Under the pieces are notes generated by a model. The model was given only the letters and a program-made list of their open reading frames with translations. It ran no database searches and was not told the DNA's origin. This document shows positions 5,382 to 46,912 of a stretch of 48,550 bases of DNA, in pieces. Where the stretch lies: IMG/VR virus record IMGVR_UViG_3300045988_097997. The stretch is one strand, 5' to 3'. Source of the stretch: a virus. Position 1 is the first letter of the stretch, and each line of letters starts with the position of its first letter. Made by a program: the position numbers and the translations under genes.

Positions 5382-5579
5382 ATGCAATCCAAATATTACT
5401 CCTGCCAGGACGTAGCGACCATGACGGGAAAGAAGCTTAAGACCGTATGGAACTGGTGCAATAGCGGAAAGCTCCGCGCCAGCCGCCCTGGTGGTCGTGA
5501 TTATCTGATAGCCGAGGCCGATTTCCTGGAGTTCATGCAGAGCGATAACCGCCGGAAGCCTGGAAAAAAGTCAAACTGA
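5382..5579 (+). CDS. Excisionase-family/MerR-like HTH DNA-binding protein (Cro/Xis-like)
   Basis: YYSCQDVATMTGKKLKTVWNWCNSGKLRASRPGGRDYLI matches the HTH_17 pattern. It is the first gene of the early operon. Confidence 0.7.
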   Translation: MQSKYYSCQDVATMTGKKLKTVWNWCNSGKLRASRPGGRDYLIAEADFLEFMQSDNRRKPGKKSN

Positions 5580-14145: not shown

Positions 14146-14943
14146 GTGAAAAATATAGCTGCAATCAACCAGGAGCGCAGGCTTATTTCCGAACTGAAAC
14201 CTGCTGAGTACAATCCGAGAAAGCGGCTGCGGCCTGGAGATGAAGAGTACGAGAATCTAAAACGCAGTATCCAGACGTTTGGCTACGTTGATCCTATTAT
14301 CGTCAACAAAGACGGTACTGTGATCGGCGGACACCAGCGTCTTTTTGTTTTGTCTGACCTGGGGTATCTGGAGGCGGACGTTGCTGTTGTTGATCTCAAT
14401 AAGCAGGACGAAAAGGCTCTGAACATTGCCCTGAACAAAATCAGTGGTGAGTGGGACCAGGAAAAGCTGGCGGCCATATTTTCCGAGCTGAACCTGGAGG
14501 GCTACGACGCCACTGTTTCTGGCTTCCAGGATGACGAGATAGCCAGTCTGATTTCTGGCGTAGTGGCTGAGGAAGTCGAAGCTGCCGAGCAATACAGCCG
14601 AAAGGTGAACGTCCCACACTACGAGATCACCGGTGAGACGCCTAAAATCAGTGAGTTGTTTGACCAGTCAAAGGCCCTGGCCCTGCTGGATGACATCGAG
14701 AGCGACGGAAGCATCAGCGAAGAGGAACGAGAGTTCCTGAGACTCGCTGCCATGCGGCACGTCGTTTTTAATTACCGAAACATCGCTGAGTATTATGCCG
14801 CTGCCAGCCCTGCGATGCAGGGGCTTATGGAAGACTCAGCCCTTGTGATCATCGACTTGGACAGAGCGATAGCCAACGGCTTTGTGAATCTGTCCAAGGC
14901 CGTCGAAGCTATCATTGAGGATGGGAAGAGCGAAAGTGCGTGA
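14146..14943 (+). CDS. ParB/Srx N-terminal-domain protein with no methyltransferase domain
   Basis: GTG start with an AGAGGTG RBS. LKPAEYNPRK, RSIQTFGYVDPIIVNKDGTVIGGHQR and ALNIALNK are ParBc signatures. The C-terminal half is unassigned. Confidence 0.8.
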   Translation: MKNIAAINQERRLISELKPAEYNPRKRLRPGDEEYENLKRSIQTFGYVDPIIVNKDGTVIGGHQRLFVLSDLGYLEADVAVVDLNKQDEKALNIALNKISGEWDQEKLAAIFSELNLEGYDATVSGFQDDEIASLISGVVAEEVEAAEQYSRKVNVPHYEITGETPKISELFDQSKALALLDDIESDGSISEEEREFLRLAAMRHVVFNYRNIAEYYAAASPAMQGLMEDSALVIIDLDRAIANGFVNLSKAVEAIIEDGKSESA

Positions 14944-15799
14944 CGACTTTGCTGTTTTCATCCTGACTCATGGCAGAGCTGATAACGTGGTTACGCTCAG
15001 GACCCTTGAGCGGCAGGGGTACAGCGGGCGGTGGTATCTGCTCATTGATGACGAGGATTCTATGGCCCCGACCTACTACGAGAAATTCGGCAGGGATCAC
15101 GTCATTACTTTCTGCAAGCAGGCTGCCTTGGACAGGGCTGACACCATGGACAATTTCAACGAGCATCGAGCTATCCTGTACGCCAGAAACGAGAGCTTCC
15201 GAATTGCGCGAGAGCTTGGCCTGACGTATTTTCTCCAGTTGGACGATGATTACTCCATTTTTATGCTCAGGTATCCTGACGGTAGTAAATTGGCCCACTT
15301 GACGCTCACGGGAAAAAACCTGGAGACGCTATTCGAGGCTATGATCGACTTTCTGGATTCCTCTGGGGCGCTGACCGTGGCGTTTGCCCAGGGTGGTGAC
15401 TACATTGGAGGCTTGGCCGGTGGAGCTTATGAGAAACGCTTGATGCGAAAAGCCATGAACACGTTTTTCTGCCGGACTGACCGCCCGATAGAGTTCCGAG
15501 GGACCATGAACGAGGATGTTACGGCATATACCACGCTGGGGAGCCGGGGGGACTTGTTCTTCACTGTCGCGGATGCCTGCATCGCTCAGTTGCAGACACA
15601 ATCTCTGAGCGGCGGCATGAGCGAGGCGTATTCTGAATCTGGGACCTACTTAAAAACTTTCTATTCGGTCATGTCTATGCCGTCCTGCATCAAGGTTAGC
15701 ATAATGGGAGAAAAACACAAACGAATCCATCACAGGATTAACTGGGAGTGCTGTGTCCCTAAAATCCTGGACGAAAAATACAGAAAGGACGTTGACTGA
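14915..15799 (+). CDS. GT-A-like (nucleotide-diphospho-sugar transferase-like) protein, tentative
   Basis: Overlaps the ParB stop. It has an N-terminal FAVFILTHGRADN strand-loop and an acidic LQLDDDY (DxD-like) motif. The coding call is solid; the function is inferred from motifs only. Confidence 0.45.
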   Translation: MRMGRAKVRDDFAVFILTHGRADNVVTLRTLERQGYSGRWYLLIDDEDSMAPTYYEKFGRDHVITFCKQAALDRADTMDNFNEHRAILYARNESFRIARELGLTYFLQLDDDYSIFMLRYPDGSKLAHLTLTGKNLETLFEAMIDFLDSSGALTVAFAQGGDYIGGLAGGAYEKRLMRKAMNTFFCRTDRPIEFRGTMNEDVTAYTTLGSRGDLFFTVADACIAQLQTQSLSGGMSEAYSESGTYLKTFYSVMSMPSCIKVSIMGEKHKRIHHRINWECCVPKILDEKYRKDVD

Positions 15800-16758
15800 T
15801 GCTAGGAATCACTGGTGATAAGATGCTGTCGCACATTGACAGGATCGTCGGAGACAACAGGCCAATAACAGCCGACGTGTTTCTGACCAACTACTGTAAC
15901 AACAGCTGCCCGTACTGCACATACCGTCGCTGGAACCTGGAGGACGGCGCGTACTCGATGGGCTATGACGAATTTGTCCTGTATGCTGAACGGCTGCTAT
16001 CGTTTGGAGTGCAGGGCATTATCCTGACCGGGGGCGGAGAACCTACCGTCTGCCGAGATTTCGAGAAGATCACGTCCTGGATGGAGTCACAGGGAATCCA
16101 CTACGGAATTAACACGAATTTTAATCGGATGGTCCGCATCAAACCTGACTATCTCAAGGTATCTTTGGACGGCTGGGACGAGGATAGCTACGCCGAGCGC
16201 CGGGGCGTCCGACATTACCAGCTGACACGAAAGAATATCCAGGCGTATGCAGCATGGAAGCGAGAGAATAGCCCCAGCACGTCCCTGGGCATCCAGTGTG
16301 TGGTCAAATCTGTGGAAGATGTGGAAAAATTCTTTTCTGCCAACAGGGATTTGGACGTTGACTACATCGTTTTCAGGCCGGAAGAAAGCACCGGTGGGAA
16401 AGCCTATGCTGGGGAATCTGCGAGAGCTTCTGCTGCTGAGATTATTCAGGCGGTGAATAAACTTGCAGAGACAGACGACCGTGTGGTGTGCAACTTCAAG
16501 TGGAACTTGCTGGGCGTCCAGGAGCGTGATTGCGTGGCTGCCTGGTCCCAGATTGCCGTGAATGAGCGCGGCGGCATTATGTTCTGCTGCCACAAGCCGT
16601 ACCAAGTCCTTGGCCACATCATGGACGAGGATATTCTGGAGAAAAAGGCGGCTGCTGTGACGGATATGCGAACCTGTGACATTCCGTGCAGGCTGACAGC
16701 ACCAAACGCTTTCGTAGCCAGCACAATGGCCGAGAGAAAGGACGCTTGTTTTTTATGA
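15799..16758 (+). CDS. Radical SAM enzyme with a SPASM/twitch-like C-terminal Cys motif
   Basis: C33-x3-C37-x2-C40 (FLTNYCNNSCPYCTY), a GGGEPT SAM-binding motif, and C-terminal C-x12-G-x4-CC ... LGHI ... C-x3-C. The start overlaps the upstream stop (TGATG). Confidence 0.8.
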   Translation: MLGITGDKMLSHIDRIVGDNRPITADVFLTNYCNNSCPYCTYRRWNLEDGAYSMGYDEFVLYAERLLSFGVQGIILTGGGEPTVCRDFEKITSWMESQGIHYGINTNFNRMVRIKPDYLKVSLDGWDEDSYAERRGVRHYQLTRKNIQAYAAWKRENSPSTSLGIQCVVKSVEDVEKFFSANRDLDVDYIVFRPEESTGGKAYAGESARASAAEIIQAVNKLAETDDRVVCNFKWNLLGVQERDCVAAWSQIAVNERGGIMFCCHKPYQVLGHIMDEDILEKKAAAVTDMRTCDIPCRLTAPNAFVASTMAERKDACFL

Positions 16759-34089: not shown

Positions 34090-34731
34090 ATGGGAAGTTT
34101 TGCGAACAACGTCATCACTGATGCTGGCCGCATCCTTCACGCGGACTGTCTGGCCGGGGCTGTCTTCACGCCGACCAGAATTGTGATCGGTAGCGGTACC
34201 CTGCCCAGCGGTACAGCAATCGCAAGCCTGACCGCAGTCATTACGCCCGTGAAGTCCCTGACCATCAACAAGGCACAGCGGACGCCCGACGGCAAGTGCA
34301 TCTTCGGCGGCGTCTACTCCAACAAGGACGTCACCCAGGATTTCTACTTCCGGGAGCTGGCCTTGTATGCCAAGGGCGTCTACCTGAACGACGACGGGAC
34401 CGTAAAGAGCGAGACGGCGGAAACCCTGTACTCCTACGGCAACGCTGGCAGCACGGCTGACCTTATGCGGGCGTACTCCACAGAGCACGTTGTCGAGCGC
34501 CAAATGGATCTCGTTTGTTGGGTGGGCAACACAGCACAGGTCAATCTTACGATTGCCAGTGACGTGTATGTCACCAGGGAGCAAATCGCGGACCTGGGGG
34601 GCGGCCTTGTGGTCATCCCCATTGGCGAAGACATCCCTGTGGCCGAAAGAAAAACCGGATTCTTGTACTTCAAGGAGAAAAACAGCGTCACTCTCCAGGT
34701 GACACAAGAAATCGGCTTGAAATTTGAATGA
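34090..34731 (+). CDS. Tail-collar fibre protein (DUF3751-like)
   Basis: N-terminus ITDAGR.L.A......V.FT.IVIGSG and ...FRELALYAKG, typical of tail-collar fibre proteins. Confidence 0.7.
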   Translation: MGSFANNVITDAGRILHADCLAGAVFTPTRIVIGSGTLPSGTAIASLTAVITPVKSLTINKAQRTPDGKCIFGGVYSNKDVTQDFYFRELALYAKGVYLNDDGTVKSETAETLYSYGNAGSTADLMRAYSTEHVVERQMDLVCWVGNTAQVNLTIASDVYVTREQIADLGGGLVVIPIGEDIPVAERKTGFLYFKEKNSVTLQVTQEIGLKFE

Positions 34732-36878
34732 ATGGAGGGGCTGGGATGGCTGATACTAGACCAATTACAAGACTCACGATCAAGGACAAGGAGACCGGAA
34801 CCGAAACCGAGACTGACGTCAAAACCTGTGCAAGAGGTGTAACGTGCGACGAGGGCAAGACCGCCCAGGACCACATTTCGGATTTCGTGGCACATAAAAA
34901 GGACGTCAACCGTCACGTCCTGGTGCAGGTCGGCGGAGACGAACCGGCAACCGGGCCTGCTCTGTGGATCGACGAAAAAAACCTACTGCACTACAAGGAT
35001 AAGAGCGGGAGCAAGGACGACCTGTACCCCGCAACGAAAGCCGCCCTCGTGGAGGGCCTGAGCGCACTGCTGGCTGGGGTAAAGAAAACGGCACAAACCG
35101 ACCTGAGTTCACATACCAGCAACAAAAACAACCCCCATGGAGTGACAGCCGAGCAGGCAGGCGCTGACCCGAAAGGCGCGGCAGCTGCTGTGCAGGTGAA
35201 CCTGGATACCCACACGGGGAACAAGAGCAACCCGCACAACGTCACCTGCGACCAGATTGGGGCTATCAAATCCTCTACGCTTGGCAAGCCCAACGGTCCG
35301 GCAAAGCTGGATGCCGATGGGAAACTGATCAAGAATCAACTGCCCCCCGTTGGCGGCAGCCGAATCACCATCACTTTCGAGCCTGCGTTCCAGGGCGCAA
35401 CCTGGACGCTGACCGGTGGCGGGGAGAATTACAGCGGCGTGGTGGACAGCACCCTGAAAACGGTTGTCCCTGTGATGGGTGTGCAGACACTGTATACCGT
35501 GTCCGCCTCTGTGAGTGGCACGAAATACAGCACAGAGGTTATGACGCTGGACTACTTTACCGCTCTGTCTGTGGCCTTAACGCAGTTCCAGGCGACCATC
35601 ATCGTCACCGTAGACGCTGATTCCACCGTCACTGCCGTATGCGGCACCACCACCCTGACCAAAACCAGCACCGGCACAGCGATTTTCACCGTCGGCAAAG
35701 CTGGTACCTGGACCATCACCGCAACCAAGGACGGCAACACCGCCACCGGCACCGTAGAGATCACCGCAAGCGGCCAGAGCAAGAGCTTGACCCTGGACTA
35801 CGCGACAGTGTTCGGCGTCTGCTGGGATACCTTCAACAGTTCCACTGCACTAACCCGCCTGACTAAAACCTCTGACCCCTATGGCTTCGTGACGAAGAAC
35901 ATCACGGCTGAACCGGTTCCGGCGGTGGGTACTGGGGCGGGCAGCTCACCGTTCGACAACTATGCACCATGGAATGGCATGAAAAAATGCAGTCTTCTTT
36001 CCGATGGCTCCGTGTATGCTTGGGAAAACCAGACAGATTTCTCTTACCTTGGCGCTTACGTCATGGTCTATATTCCTACGTTCTATGTCGCACAAAAACG
36101 AAAAGATGCGAAACAGTATTTCTACATCTCGGATAAGGCTAAAACTGGATTCACAAAACATCCTGGTAGCGGAAAATTTGTCGGTCGGTACCACATGAAT
36201 AGTGACGGATATTGCAATTCCAGACAACCACCCTATGTCAATATGACTAGGGCTGTTGCACGCAGTAAGGCAAAAAACAATGGAGGAAAGTTTTGCCTCT
36301 ATAACTTCGCTACCTACTGTGCCATCATTTGGCTGTATGTTATGGAGTTTGCGGATTGGAATTGCCAAAACAAGATTGGCAGAGGCTACGTTGATAACCA
36401 TAACTCCGCTATTAACTCCGGCGGAACCGACAGTATGACTTATCACACAGGCCGTGCCGCTGGCACTGACGGCAGTACCGCTGTCCAGTACCGCTGGATC
36501 GAAAACTTGTGGGGCAACGTCTACCAGTGGATCGACGGCTTCAACGCGAACGGTACAACGGCATACTACCGTATCGACCCTTCCCGATACGCTGACGACA
36601 CCGCGACTGGATACAATCACATTGGGACGCTACCGCCTAACGGTTGGATTAAAGATCTGACTGTGACGGATAACGGCCTGCTGATCCCCAAGACTGTCGG
36701 TGGCAGTGAGACTACGTTTATCCCAGATTACGCCTGCTCGTCTTCCGGGTGGCGCGTGCTCAATGTGGGTGGCAACTGGAGCAACGGCTCGAGCGCGGGC
36801 TTGCTGTACTTCGACGCGAGCTTCTCGTCGTCGAACTCGTACTCGTACATCTCTGCGCGTCTCCTGTGTGAGGCGTAG
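34728..36878 (+). CDS. Tail fibre / receptor-binding protein; DGR target with a C-terminal CLec/FGE-sulfatase-like variable domain
   Basis: Phage fibre repeats (HTSNKNNPHGVTAEQAGA and HTGNKSNPHNVTCDQIGA). The C-terminus ...GWRVLNVGGNWSNGSSAGLLYFDASFSSSNSYSYISARLLCEA carries the VR. Confidence 0.9.
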   Translation: MNGGAGMADTRPITRLTIKDKETGTETETDVKTCARGVTCDEGKTAQDHISDFVAHKKDVNRHVLVQVGGDEPATGPALWIDEKNLLHYKDKSGSKDDLYPATKAALVEGLSALLAGVKKTAQTDLSSHTSNKNNPHGVTAEQAGADPKGAAAAVQVNLDTHTGNKSNPHNVTCDQIGAIKSSTLGKPNGPAKLDADGKLIKNQLPPVGGSRITITFEPAFQGATWTLTGGGENYSGVVDSTLKTVVPVMGVQTLYTVSASVSGTKYSTEVMTLDYFTALSVALTQFQATIIVTVDADSTVTAVCGTTTLTKTSTGTAIFTVGKAGTWTITATKDGNTATGTVEITASGQSKSLTLDYATVFGVCWDTFNSSTALTRLTKTSDPYGFVTKNITAEPVPAVGTGAGSSPFDNYAPWNGMKKCSLLSDGSVYAWENQTDFSYLGAYVMVYIPTFYVAQKRKDAKQYFYISDKAKTGFTKHPGSGKFVGRYHMNSDGYCNSRQPPYVNMTRAVARSKAKNNGGKFCLYNFATYCAIIWLYVMEFADWNCQNKIGRGYVDNHNSAINSGGTDSMTYHTGRAAGTDGSTAVQYRWIENLWGNVYQWIDGFNANGTTAYYRIDPSRYADDTATGYNHIGTLPPNGWIKDLTVTDNGLLIPKTVGGSETTFIPDYACSSSGWRVLNVGGNWSNGSSAGLLYFDASFSSSNSYSYISARLLCEA
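36730..36865 (+). repeat. DGR variable repeat (VR)
   Basis: 136 bp aligning with 36998..37133. There are 13 mismatches, and every one lies at a TR adenine. Confidence 0.92.
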
Positions 36879-36902
36879 CCGAACACAGTCCCCTCCGGGG
36901 GA

Positions 36903-36922
36903 CCGGGGGTCGCAACCCCCGG
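36903..36922 (+). promoter_or_regulatory. GC-rich hairpin downstream of VR (candidate DGR homing-enhancing stem-loop)
   Basis: CCGGGGGT-cgca-ACCCCCGG is a perfect 8-bp stem with a 4-nt loop. It is preceded by a second hairpin, GTCCCC-tccg-GGGGAC, at 36888..36903. Confidence 0.55.
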
Positions 36923-36942
36923 CGCTTTGCAAAGCGGTTTTT
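36923..36942 (+). terminator. Terminator-like hairpin after the fibre gene
   Basis: CGCTTTG/CAAAGCG palindrome followed by GTTTTT. Confidence 0.5.
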
Positions 36943-36997
36943 AACAACGAAATAAATTAAGGGACTGTCTGCGCGTCGTGGAGTGTTACCGCGCCCG

Positions 36998-37133
36998 ACG
37001 CCAACTCGTCTTCCGGGTGGCACGTGCTCAATGTGGGTGGCAACTGGAACAACGGCTCGAACGCGGGCTTGCTGTACTTCAACGCGAACAACACGTCGTC
37101 GAACTCGAACTCGAACATCTCTGCGCGTCTACT
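36998..37133 (+). repeat. DGR template repeat (TR)
   Basis: Non-coding copy of the VR, rich in AAC triplets in the VR reading frame (NWNNGSNAGLLYFNANNTSSNSNSNISAR). It lies directly upstream of the RT gene. Confidence 0.92.
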
Positions 37134-37295
37134 TTTTCCAACAAATTTGAATCGTCTCATTGCGCAGGCTTTCCCTCATCCCTTGATGAAAATCATACCC
37201 AGAGGACGGGGCCTAGTAGGTAAACTCTCGAACGGCCCCGCAGGTAAAAAGGAAGTGCTAGTATTCCTAAGAGAGTTGGATTCCTCTATAACAAA

Positions 37296-38387
37296 ATGCT
37301 GAACATGGCATTTATCAAAGAAACGATACTTCTTGCTAGCAAGAGAAAGAAAAATCGCCGCAGTGTGCGGCGGGTGCTGGCAAACATCGACGAGTACGCT
37401 GAGAGGTTGCTTGTCATGTTGGACACGGATACCTTTGTTCCGACCAAGCCGAAGATCAAGCAAGTATATGATCAAAGCTCCAGGAAGTGGAGAGAGATCA
37501 AAGTTGTTCCGTTCTTCCCTGACGCCTGTGTTCATTGGCTGTGCGTCCGGGCGATGAAACCCGTGCTAATGCGCGGCATGCACCACTGGTCGTGTGCCAG
37601 TATTCCAGGCAGAGGCGGCGCAAGAGCCGTGAGACAAATCGGGCGTATGATACAGCGCCGCACGAAGAGCAGTAAATACGCTGCTCAGTGTGATGTGCGG
37701 AAGTTCTATGACAGCATCCCGCCGGATGGTGTAAGAAAGGCTCTGGAACACAAGATCAAAGACCGACGCTTCGTTCGGCTTGTGATGAGCATCATTCAGG
37801 ATGGCCTCGCAATCGGCTACTACATCTGCCAATGGCTTGCCAACGTCTACCTGGAAGGTCTGGACCGGGTGCTTTGCAGGCAGAAGGGTGTGACCTGTGA
37901 GGTGCGATACATGGACAACGTAACGTTGTTCTCCCGCAGTAAGAGGGCCTTGCATAAGGCGCTGAAAGCGGCAAGCTCTTATCTCAGGACGATAGGGCTT
38001 TCCCTCAAGGGAGACTGGGCCGTATTCCCTGTGTCGAAGCGGGCTGTCGATGCCATTGGGTACCGTTTCAGCCGAACGTGCATTATCCTACGCAAGCGCC
38101 CTTGCCTGCGGCTTATGCGGCAGTGTCGGCGGGCAGTGAAACGCAAGAAACGCGGCGGTGTTGCTGTGAAAATGGCACAGGCACTTATGGCTCGAATTGG
38201 CCGGTTGAAAATGTGCGCAAAGAAGAAACTAACAGACCGCTACATTCGGCCTGTTGGAATGAAATACTTGACAGGAGTGATTCGACGTGCGAGTACACGG
38301 AGACGTAAAGCCGCCCGAATGGACGGCAGAAAGCTGCCCGAACAAGCCGGGCACGGCGCTGGTGCGCTTTTGCCTGAACCCGGTTGA
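37296..38387 (+). CDS. DGR-type reverse transcriptase (variant motifs IGYYICQ and YMDN)
   Basis: Aligns by eye with DGR RT blocks: CDVRKFYDSIP (motif A Asp), GLAIGYYICQWLANVYL (the I/LGxxxSQ position) and VRYMDNVTLF (the YxDD position). The C-terminal tail is very basic. Confidence 0.85.
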   Translation: MLNMAFIKETILLASKRKKNRRSVRRVLANIDEYAERLLVMLDTDTFVPTKPKIKQVYDQSSRKWREIKVVPFFPDACVHWLCVRAMKPVLMRGMHHWSCASIPGRGGARAVRQIGRMIQRRTKSSKYAAQCDVRKFYDSIPPDGVRKALEHKIKDRRFVRLVMSIIQDGLAIGYYICQWLANVYLEGLDRVLCRQKGVTCEVRYMDNVTLFSRSKRALHKALKAASSYLRTIGLSLKGDWAVFPVSKRAVDAIGYRFSRTCIILRKRPCLRLMRQCRRAVKRKKRGGVAVKMAQALMARIGRLKMCAKKKLTDRYIRPVGMKYLTGVIRRASTRRRKAARMDGRKLPEQAGHGAGALLPEPG

Positions 38388-38901
38388 GGAAACGGCAGAC
38401 GAACGGACCGGCTGGGTCTACGATGAATTTACCGTAGAGGTACCTGACGGTGAAGATCTGCAAGAGCGCGTAGCTGAACAGTTCGACGACCTGCTGCGGC
38501 AGGCTGTTGGTGCTGGGGCGTCCCTGGATGATATGCGGGACCAGCGCATTGCGGAGACCAAGGCCGCCCTCGCTGAGTGGCTTGTTGAGAATCCACTGAC
38601 CTGGACAGACGGCCACCAGTACGCGGTAACGCAGGAGAAGCAGTCTCAGTTGACATCCACTTTGGCCGTACAGCAGGTAGCTCTAGCTTCTGGCGTTGAC
38701 CGGAAGCTTCGGTGGAATACTACCGGAGATGAATGTACGGAATGGACTTATGAAGGATTGTGCGCCTTGGCTCTGGCAATCTCTGATTACGTCGAGCCGA
38801 GAGTTTCTATCCAACAGGCCGCTGAGGTAGCTATCCGCGATGCGAAAACTGCAAAGGGGGTCCTCACCGTTGTCTGGGACTACGATATGCCGGTGGCATA
38901 A
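38287..38901 (+). CDS. DUF4376-like phage protein (XkdW-region analogue)
   Basis: C-terminal pattern W.....H.Y....EKQ..L......V...SG......W......C.EWTYEGL.AL...I..YV is reminiscent of DUF4376. The annotated start overlaps the RT by 101 nt, so the true start is uncertain. Confidence 0.5.
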   Translation: MRVHGDVKPPEWTAESCPNKPGTALVRFCLNPVEETADERTGWVYDEFTVEVPDGEDLQERVAEQFDDLLRQAVGAGASLDDMRDQRIAETKAALAEWLVENPLTWTDGHQYAVTQEKQSQLTSTLAVQQVALASGVDRKLRWNTTGDECTEWTYEGLCALALAISDYVEPRVSIQQAAEVAIRDAKTAKGVLTVVWDYDMPVA

Positions 38902-46308: not shown

Positions 46309-46494
46309 ATGAAAGAGAAAAAGAACCCACCCCAGAAGAAAGCTGCCCATGCCACCGTCAAGGTAAGCAAGAAGAACCCCACCACCAACTATCCCCGCGA
46401 CAGCCATAGAGCGTTCTGCAATCGCTGTTTTTATGGCAACAACCGCCGCTGCCCTATTACCGGGCGCAACAGCACCAAGCGGTGTAGACTGTGA
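46309..46494 (+). CDS. Small basic Cys-containing protein
   Basis: Trimmed to the ATG after an AGGAGG RBS. 61 aa. Confidence 0.4.
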   Translation: MKEKKNPPQKKAAHATVKVSKKNPTTNYPRDSHRAFCNRCFYGNNRRCPITGRNSTKRCRL

Positions 46495-46501
46495 GGGCGG
46501 C

Positions 46502-46912
46502 ATGGAGTCCAAACGAATCAGCAAGCGCGATTATTACCTGTTCATAGCCCGCGCTGTTGCCCGCCGTAGCACCTGCATCCGTCGCCACTATGGCGCTGTG
46601 ATTGTCAAGGACGACAGGATCATTGCTACCGGCTACAACGGTGCGGCCAGAGGCGAACCGAACTGCTGTGATGTAGGGGAGTGCTGGAGAGCTGCCCACA
46701 ACATCCCCCATGGGGAACAGTACGAGAAGTGCGTGGCAGTCCACGCCGAGGACAATGCCATTTCCCAGGCTGGCCGGGAGGCCCTGGGCGCGACCCTCTA
46801 CCTGTGGGGAGAAGATGCCCAAGGAAACGAGATCCCCGCCGCCCCCTGCATGATGTGTGCCCGGAAGATCAAGAACGCCGGGATTGTGGAGGTCGTAAGC
46901 TATGGACATTAG
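46502..46912 (+). CDS. Deoxycytidylate (dCMP) deaminase
   Basis: AVHAEDNAI (HAE zinc ligand/catalytic Glu) and PCMMCARKI (PCxxC), with a ComEB/CDA-like size. Confidence 0.85.
   Translation: MESKRISKRDYYLFIARAVARRSTCIRRHYGAVIVKDDRIIATGYNGAARGEPNCCDVGECWRAAHNIPHGEQYEKCVAVHAEDNAISQAGREALGATLYLWGEDAQGNEIPAAPCMMCARKIKNAGIVEVVSYGH

Follow-up and report, generated by a model that had tools for sequence, protein, structure and literature searches.

A very probably functional, Avd-less diversity-generating retroelement with a YMDN reverse transcriptase in a predicted temperate phage of gut Oscillospiraceae

In the virus record IMGVR_UViG_3300045988_097997 of IMG/VR (48,550 nucleotides; hereafter the window, i.e., the whole stretch of DNA analyzed), the end of a tail-fibre gene, a downstream repeat of it and an adjoining reverse transcriptase (RT) gene constitute what is very probably a functional diversity-generating retroelement (DGR), devoid of the accessory protein Avd and carried by a temperate myovirus-type phage infecting gut Oscillospiraceae. 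An earlier note on this DNA, made from its letters, had proposed that the phage diversifies its receptor-binding tip by means of a DGR. This proposal is borne out by an RT of DGR lineage, by differences between the variable repeat (VR) and the template repeat (TR) that fall on TR adenines only, by a tail protein as target, by a boundary marker of the type found at the site of initiation of mutagenic homing (IMH) and by an RT-18 RNA in the spacer that separates TR from RT gene. The features on which this reading leans are the following:

34728..36878, + strand: DGR target gene, tail fibre/tail protein of 716 aa, with N-terminal tail-collar-fibre repeats and the VR at its C-terminal end
36730..36865, + strand: VR, with a mutable section at ~36735-36847
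36998..37133, + strand: TR, with 30 A and 11 AAC codons, an IMH*-like end at 37120-37133 and the marker A at 37131
37296..38387, + strand: DGR RT, 363 aa from ATG, RVT_1, phrog_1423, with a very basic C-terminal tail

A repeat search of the window returned VR and TR as a direct repeat, aligned without gaps over 136 nt at 90% identity, whose homology ends abruptly at both flanks; neither a second VR nor an additional TR copy was found within the 48.5-kb window. When both copies are compared base by base, they differ at exactly 13 positions, 13/13 of which have A in the TR (TR to VR: AA to TG, A to G four times, AACAACA to AGCTTCT, AAC to TAC twice and A to C once). The coordinates, length and mismatch list of the earlier note are hence reproduced exactly, and the TR adenines that it had counted by hand as about 30 are exactly 30, with a hypergeometric probability of 2.5e-10 for 13/13 mismatches falling on A. 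Read in the frame of the VR, the TR is rich in AAC codons, as had also been noticed: it contains 11 of them and its translation (...NWNNGSNAGLLYFNANNTSSNSNSNISARLL) is the one given before. In this frame, codon positions 1 and 2 hold 12 of the 13 mismatches and 29 of the 30 TR adenines, and up to ~27 adenines, spread over 14-15 codons, are open to change in the VR.

The behavior of the repeats in related phages carries the argument further. Scans of IMG/VR and of GTDB genomes yielded 96 related loci, and an A-bias detector (self-BLAST followed by counts of the mismatched bases) revealed the same cassette with A-biased mismatches in essentially every locus with enough upstream DNA (~60 related loci). 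Within a close set of 7 relatives (RT identity 92-100%, 21 pairs, the window being denoted WIN), the window and L006 have identical TRs and VRs that differ at 20 columns, 20/20 of which are TR-A columns. Over the 21 close pairs, 277 VR differences were counted at columns where both TRs have A versus 23 at columns where both have the same non-A base, and in the instances where the TRs themselves differ at a non-A position (L008 and L009), each VR carries the base of its own TR. The RT genes of these close relatives differ by 4-13% at the DNA level. Because the VR is without ordinary drift, it would have been repeatedly overwritten by the TR; moreover, because a relative with an identical TR has a VR differing only at TR-A columns, the lineage of the window appears to have diversified recently. 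Identical TRs with different VRs, together with non-A TR changes copied into their own VR, thus lend indirect support to unidirectional mutagenic retrohoming. Clade-wide, among 58 unique TR/VR pairs, 711 of 1536 TR adenines are changed (46%) versus 24 differences at non-A positions. This comparison among relatives takes the place of the pile-ups of reads that the earlier note had called for. The substitutions at these adenines are skewed (A to G 64%, A to T 31%, A to C 5%), which may reflect a misincorporation bias of the RT, possibly tied to its YMDN and CQ motifs, or selection on the encoded residues.

The same comparison led us to refine one point of the earlier note, which had listed the 13 differences together. 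All of them do fall on TR adenines, but the last one (column 134; A37131 in the TR, C36863 in the VR) is a fixed boundary marker: every TR has A and every VR has C at this column in the 7 close relatives. Clade-wide, a boundary mismatch occupies this site in 33/33 unique pairs, the VR reading CTCCT and the TR CTACT, CACCT, CAACT or CCACT. Judged by these alignments, A37131/C36863 would mark the boundary between IMH and IMH* and would not be a product of mutagenesis. The mismatch being fixed in relatives, 12 mismatches are therefore counted as mutagenic and one as a boundary marker, and copying into complementary DNA (cDNA) would begin upstream of TR position 134, because the A/C marker is never transferred.

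Two further observations were made on the repeats of the nearest relatives. In L005, the closest full relative (97% RT identity), the VR (5433-5570) is 2 nt longer than the TR, the difference being located in the AAC-rich part; the final ~20 codons would be put out of frame by it, and it may be either an artefact of the assembly of mixed VRs or a genuine DGR indel, indels opposite AAC repeats having been reported (Wu et al., 2018; PMC5758913). Several contigs with the closest RTs (L002, L003, L004, L010, L011 and L012) begin 180-520 nt 5' of the RT gene or inside it, and such contig breaks at the TR fit an assembly symptom of a hypervariable TR/VR repeat.

Regarding the RT, its open reading frame (ORF), which had been placed 160 nt downstream of the TR, begins 162 nt after it, the VR-to-TR distance being 132 nt. 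The protein matches RVT_1 (E=4e-13) and phrog_1423 (E=4e-66), and its best solved relative is the DGR RT of BPP-1 (8ub7, E=2e-13), group II intron RTs ranking behind it. Two of its motifs are unusual. Motif 4, which is linked to adenine mutagenesis, reads IGYYICQ instead of (I/V/L)GxxxSQ, with I, G and Q kept and S replaced by C in the window and by N in some relatives, while motif C reads RYMDN instead of YxDD. In the DiGReF survey, the two final residues of motif 4 are variable in ~10% of DGR RTs (SP, SH, NQ, PA, AQ, VQ), which still look functional; because similar variants are listed there, IGYYICQ is a deviation that does not exclude this enzyme from the DGR RTs. The same survey found both Asp of motif C to be 100% conserved in 155 DGR RTs. 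In the structure of the BPP-1 enzyme (bRT), D138, D215 and D216 serve as catalytic residues, with a modelled Mg2+ adjoining D138 and D215 (preprint 10.1101/2023.10.23.563531).

The Asn of motif C is a property of the whole clade. Among the matches listed, (Y/H)MDN is found in all of at least 120 homologues down to 45% identity, and Asn is present in 96/96 loci with a readable motif, over a range of 41-100% RT identity; it is encoded by AAC in 87 and by AAT in 9, and the RT ORFs of the related loci are intact and full length. The nearest 150 representatives of 50%-identity clusters have xDN in 29 of ~147, with various motif-4 endings, and most of these 150 diverse relatives carry (I/L)GxxxSQ. 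In the outgroups Brt, Arawn and Epona, the motifs read YMDD and SQ, and in a rough neighbour-joining tree rooted on Brt, Asp is ancestral and changed to Asn at least 6 times, the window belonging to the largest all-Asn clade. No relevant mention of an RT with a YxDN-type motif C was found in the open-access full-text literature. Because of the adenine-specific TR/VR signature and of the VR turnover among relatives with identical TRs, the YMDN RTs of this clade are most likely active in vivo despite having Asn for the second catalytic Asp. A broader proposition, to which we give an even chance, is that they form a large and successful set of DGR RTs that are active in vivo with only two of the three canonical carboxylates, do without Avd and, as far as we have searched, have not been described; in the clade of the window, the Asn goes together with the S-to-C/N change of motif 4. 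Their use of metals or their fidelity may differ from those of canonical enzymes.

The start of the RT gene deserves a separate comment. The RT frame is open and conserved over 11 codons 5' of ATG 37296 (IPKRVGFLYNKM; window 37263-37298). In the ~50%-identity relatives, this upstream peptide begins with ATG after a GGAGG box, and in the window and the 70% group ATT or ATC stands in place of this ATG, an AAGGAAG box being located at 37249-37255. On this evidence, the RT may start at the rare ATT 37263 (possibly with low translation) or at the internal ATG 37296.

Around the repeats, conserved DNA and RNA elements were identified. The order proposed earlier, i.e., target with VR, hairpins, TR and RT, could be mapped entirely, with a spacer RNA to be added between TR and RT:

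36852..36865, + strand: VR 3' end, GC-rich and IMH-like (TCTGCGCGTCTCCT), bearing the fixed marker C 36863, invariant in the 7 close relatives; analogue of the BPP-1 IMH
36889..36901, + strand: first small GC hairpin, 5 bp, conserved in an RNAalifold consensus on 33 loci
36903..36922, + strand: second hairpin/cruciform CCGGGGGT-CGCA-ACCCCCGG, with an 8-bp stem and a 4-nt loop, showing covariation; counterpart of the BPP-1 inverted repeat
36923..36943, + strand: terminator-like palindrome with a T-run, separating the fibre gene from the TR unit
36961..36974, + strand: conserved leader GGGACUGUCUGCGC, ~35 nt 5' of the TR, invariant in every locus, pairing with the spacer box
37162..37175, + strand: spacer box GCGCAGGC..UCCC, complementary to the leader, forming a long-range duplex that brackets the TR; outside the Rfam model
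37177..37254, + strand: structured spacer RNA, Rfam RF03021 'RT-18 RNA' (62.2 bits vs a gathering score of 41.3, E ~1e-10, full model)

The 8-bp hairpin, in which two pairs show full compensatory switches (UA:16/CG:16 and CG:27/UA:5), stands after the VR and is absent after the TR. It has the same geometry of 8-bp stem and 4-nt loop as the inverted repeat CGGGGCC-GAAA-GGCCCCG that follows the GC-rich IMH of BPP-1. Within the spacer, the leader-pairing box is followed by the RT-18 structure, consisting of a 4-bp hairpin (37177-37188), an invariant AAAAU, a long covarying stem and an AAGGA resembling a Shine-Dalgarno sequence. The eight clade members tested all match RT-18 as well, and so does Lactobacillus phage LBR48. 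The leader:spacer duplex is paired in 288/288 cells over 24 distinct sequences, with compensatory double changes at 7 of its 12 pairs; these values were reached in 0/500 shuffles, and slid partners pair at 28-72%. The stems of the spacer itself were recovered from our own alignment of 42 spacers, in which 98.8% of the cells are paired vs 30-49% with slid partners and double-change cells number 84 vs 20.5±3.5 in shuffles. In the ~50%-identity group, the leader is preceded by TATAAT at a spacing fit for a transcription start.

This architecture recalls that of the ribonucleoprotein formed by bRT and Avd in BPP-1, where a segment upstream of the TR forms with positions 59-70 of the spacer (Sp) a duplex needed for cDNA synthesis, named 'cPRT Stop' and followed by a short stem-loop and unpaired adenosines (preprint 10.1101/2023.10.23.563531). 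The same order of duplex, 4-bp stem-loop and invariant AAAAU is found in the clade of the window, as a structural analogy only. As to RT-18, the motifs RT-1 to RT-19 were described as lying near RT genes, RT-10 being the only one tied to a DGR in the main text and other links being speculated (Weinberg et al., 2017; PMC5737381); here RT-18 is placed exactly between the TR and a DGR RT and is preceded by the leader-pairing box. Two candidate features were rejected. A homology of the spacer to the BPP-1 Sp, suggested by a GGC(C)TTTCC(C)TCA match at Sp 34-45, proved insignificant (shuffle P 0.04-0.5) and its common offset fails in other clade members. A 'template:primer' duplex between the TR 3' end and the spacer is possible in the window through TCTGCGCGTC, but on inspection it finds no support, as the box shows no compensation for a change of the TR in the 50% group. 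This 10-mer occurs three times, at the VR 3' end (36852-36861), in the leader (36968-36977) and at the TR 3' end (37120-37129), and in this phage the spacer box could pair with the leader or with the TR 3' end, an alternative that may bear on the positioning of primer and template.

Taken in sequence, these elements outline a mechanism. By analogy with BPP-1, an RNA would run from the leader (36961) through the TR into the spacer, TATAAT being observed ahead of the leader in relatives. The leader would then pair with the spacer box, bracketing the TR, while the spacer would fold into RT-18, as the covariation of both structures indicates. The RT of the cassette, presumably acting like that of BPP-1, would copy the TR into cDNA and misincorporate opposite adenines, in keeping with the adenine-only signature, synthesis probably beginning upstream of TR position 134, as the A/C marker that is never transferred suggests. 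The cDNA would replace the VR, guided as in BPP-1 by the IMH-like end and by the 8-bp hairpin just downstream. The outcome would be new receptor-binding tips, with up to ~27 adenines in 14-15 codons variable; the changes at TR adenines are in part seen in the repeats and in part predicted.

Several points weigh against a functional DGR. The evidence of activity for the cassette of the window is indirect, coming from the sequences of its relatives; a promoter scan of the window revealed no sigma-70-like site 5' of the leader; and the priming nucleotide and a template:primer duplex, sought in the spacer/TR comparison, were not identified. The Asn of the window RT occupies the position of bRT D216, and the second Asp of YxDD is regarded as catalytic. 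In HIV-1 RT, the substitution D186N inactivates the enzyme, and YMDN could in principle mean a dead RT. The cassette would then be a fossil, once active, whose VR/TR differences are relics. A motif C without the second catalytic Asp and the full conservation of both Asp in the DiGReF set speak for this alternative, which we nevertheless consider very improbable. Indeed, the Asn is shared by 96/96 loci over the wide range of RT identities given above, is written with both AAC and AAT codons and lies in intact ORFs; among relatives with identical or nearly identical TRs, VR differences are confined to A columns and drift at non-A columns is essentially absent, while their RT genes differ by ~8% at the DNA level; and the IMH marker, the hairpin, the leader:spacer duplex and RT-18 are maintained by compensatory evolution. 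Since differences confined to A columns are found among relatives with diverged YMDN RT genes, retrohoming would have gone on after the Asn was fixed. The other alternative, an ordinary duplication or gene-conversion tract whose adenine bias arose by chance or from composition, has in its favor the bare existence of a repeat and nothing else. With the hypergeometric probability given above, the same bias in 58 unique pairs, a DGR-type RT adjoining the repeat and a TR homologous to the annotated TR of BPP-1, we judge it refuted and improbable in the extreme, and a functional DGR is retained as the reading of this locus.

The target of the DGR is well placed to be a tail protein. The VR makes up the last 49 codons of the 716-aa ORF, and its location at the C-terminus of a tail fibre, as had been put forward, agrees with the gene position (after Baseplate_J, Tail_P2_I and a short fibre-like ORF) and with the match of residues 266-714 to phrog_5302 'tail protein' (E=1.5e-70), the N-terminal part matching the tail collar fibre phrog_25620. 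The C-terminal region of ~450 aa, described as receptor-binding, is conserved and ends in the VR. The earlier note had further placed the VR in a context typical of C-type-lectin (CLec) or formylglycine-generating-enzyme (FGE) folds, and here the outcome is divided. At the level of the TR, homology to BPP-1 is significant: over 92 nt, the TR shares 76% identity with the TR annotated in BPP-1 (blastn), it also matches the TRs of Vibrio phages VHML and VP585 (E=1e-6 to 4e-6 for BPP-1, VHML and VP585 in a 2.3-Gb database) and the peptide that it encodes (GGNWNN.SN.G....N.NN..SNSN.NI.AR) matches its BPP-1 counterpart at 19/31 residues (z=9, 0/3000 shuffles). By contrast, confirmation of the fold did not come from any of the protein-level approaches. 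No Pfam domain was found in the target even at E<=10, or in any of its >1000 homologues, and neither phmmer nor profile searches against the PDB gave a match. The structure prediction of the fibre C-terminus that the earlier note had called for produced two AlphaFold2 models of low confidence (predicted local distance difference test scores, pLDDT, of 34 and 47, from alignments of 40 and 121 sequences, all at least 66% identical) and no fold match, the Foldseek search of the PDB with the low-confidence pLDDT-47 model giving nothing with E<0.6. As to BPP-1 Mtd, BLASTP detected no similarity to the target, and in hhalign only the VRs align, at the extreme C-termini and weakly (E=0.029, probability 1.7%). 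In the classification of Wu et al. (2018; PMC5758913), the CLec1 class is set by VR alignment and its 'category c' comprises CLec1 targets without domain matches. By this VR-alignment criterion, the VR is assigned to CLec1, the class that contains BPP-1, while a C-type-lectin fold of the VR domain is plausible, its support residing in the TR-level homology to BPP-1.

No Pfam match to Avd (23S_rRNA_IVP/Avd) was found among 121 small ORFs of the window on both strands, and in all relatives the VR-TR gap of 97-305 nt leaves no space for a gene. The lack of Avd corresponds to a known variant, "Architecture A", which accounts for 29% of 372 DGRs, and it has been stated that 'Lineage 3 notably lacks avd' (Wu et al., 2018; PMC5758913). 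A candidate for another accessory protein nevertheless follows the RT:

38287..38901, + strand: acidic ORF X, overlapping the RT 3' end, with a conserved N-terminal part of ~90 aa

We cannot attach much weight to the idea that ORF X, translationally coupled to the RT, is an unrecognized substitute for Avd, and consider it unlikely. Of 23 diverse loci, 22 encode its N-terminal ~90 aa (MRVxGD..PNKPG..VRF..GWxYDEY), and its start always lies inside the RT 3' end, it belongs to an unannotated family (phrog_18126) and BPP-1 needs Avd for cDNA synthesis (preprint 10.1101/2023.10.23.563531), all of which favor such a role. However, X is strongly acidic, with a pI of 4.1-4.7, and the nucleic-acid-binding Avd proteins are basic, with an average pI of 9.5 (Wu et al., 2018; PMC5758913). 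Its C-terminus varies, with a coiled-coil in most loci and, in the window, weak matches of DUF4376/tail-fibre type (DUF4376 and phrog_1348), and the ORFs that follow the RT in LBR48, Epona and Arawn have no detectable relation to it. Moreover, in the 30-kb contig MT835573.1, X stands directly after a homologous fibre gene and the contig contains no RT, TR or second repeat copy. Because X follows the fibre gene in this RT-less contig, we read it as linked to the fibre: it is probably a fibre-associated protein and not a DGR accessory factor, the TR-RT unit lying between the fibre gene and X. MT835573.1 (L105/L106), a related faecal phage contig, has a fibre (L105 4289-5986) with a VR-like end, …GWRVLSVGGGRDYGSSSGMF…IGARLLF, and is also devoid of the GC hairpin. 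Its DGR may have been lost and the VR thereby frozen, or the element may be located beyond the contig.

In comparison with known systems, the closest parallel is the DGR of BPP-1 (mtd-VR/avd/TR/brt). Both share adenine-specific TR-to-VR differences, a VR at the C-terminus of a receptor-binding tail protein, homologous TRs, a structured TR-RT spacer RNA, an upstream:spacer duplex and an RT for which that of BPP-1 is the closest solved relative. They differ in that BPP-1 possesses avd while the window has none and only 132 nt between VR and TR, in the spacer (RF03022 Phage_DGR vs RT-18, without significant sequence similarity), in the RT motifs (YMDD and IGSLTSQ vs YMDN and IGYYICQ), in a target without detectable similarity to Mtd outside the VR and in the host, which is here a Gram-positive gut anaerobe, unlike that of BPP-1. 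Faecalibacterium phage FP_Epona (Cornuault et al., 2018; PMC5883640), an example of Architecture A1 (target-TR-RT; Wu et al., 2018; PMC5758913), likewise has no accessory gene. It shares the synteny of the window (Tail_P2_I, tail-collar fibre, target with VR, non-coding TR region, RT, lysis genes), the Oscillospiraceae/Ruminococcaceae host family and the gut habitat, but its RT is ~33% identical to that of the window with canonical RYMDD and LGFYISQ, and its spacer is RT-4, not RT-18; a spacer of the RT-18 type is on the other hand shared with Lactobacillus phage LBR48. Finally, in the parts of Roux et al. (2021; PMC8144416) consulted, DGRs are common in gut phages with mostly tail proteins as targets, and the viral gut DGR clades 1, 4 and 6 have in common with the present one a phage location, gut Firmicutes hosts, tail-protein targets and C-Lec-type VRs; no mention of an active-site variant of a DGR RT was found in these parts.

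The gene content of the window, with a serine integrase, YqaJ/RecT, a replisome organiser, terminase, portal, protease, major head protein, sheath, tape measure, baseplate proteins and an amidase endolysin, is that predicted for a temperate myovirus-type phage of gut Oscillospiraceae. Related RTs occur in prophages of cultured Oscillospiraceae (Agathobaculum, Dysosmobacter, Flavonifractor and Yanshouia, with prophage relatives of ~50% identity, and also Hominicoprocola) as well as in metagenome-assembled genomes of Subdoligranulum, and among deposited phage genomes none was found with an RT more than ~36% identical to that of the window. Apart from the DGR, a weak ParB_N-like ORF, a TET-associated glycosyltransferase (TAGT, E=3e-43) and a radical SAM protein stand in a row at 14146-16758, which is possibly a DNA-modification module. 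An ORF of the dCMP/cytidine deaminase family is located near the right end (~46433-46912, coordinates inferred from synteny with L002), and the window ORFs of 85-175 aa include one that matches the Endonuclease/Exonuclease/phosphatase family (E=1.3e-15) and another that matches the HicB-like antitoxin family (E=2e-07).

DGRs diversifying the tips of tail fibres are of a well-known kind; what is new is this member, which is far from deposited phages and belongs to an RT-18-type, Avd-less group. The locus provides a complete specimen in which target, IMH marker, hairpin, leader, TR, RT-18 RNA and RT are mapped to the base, and it allows the orphan Rfam motif RT-18 to be assigned to the TR-RT spacer of an Avd-less group of DGRs. 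By analogy with the RNA of the bRT-Avd complex, it also suggests that the architecture known from BPP-1, an upstream:Sp duplex bracketing the TR, is retained even without Avd. Being compact (363 aa) and accessory-free, these RTs are candidates for engineered tools of targeted mutagenesis. Moreover, the apparently active YMDN clade offers a natural test of the dispensability of the second motif-C aspartate and, if its members are indeed active, they would represent naturally occurring enzymes whose polymerisation relies on only two of the three canonical carboxylates.

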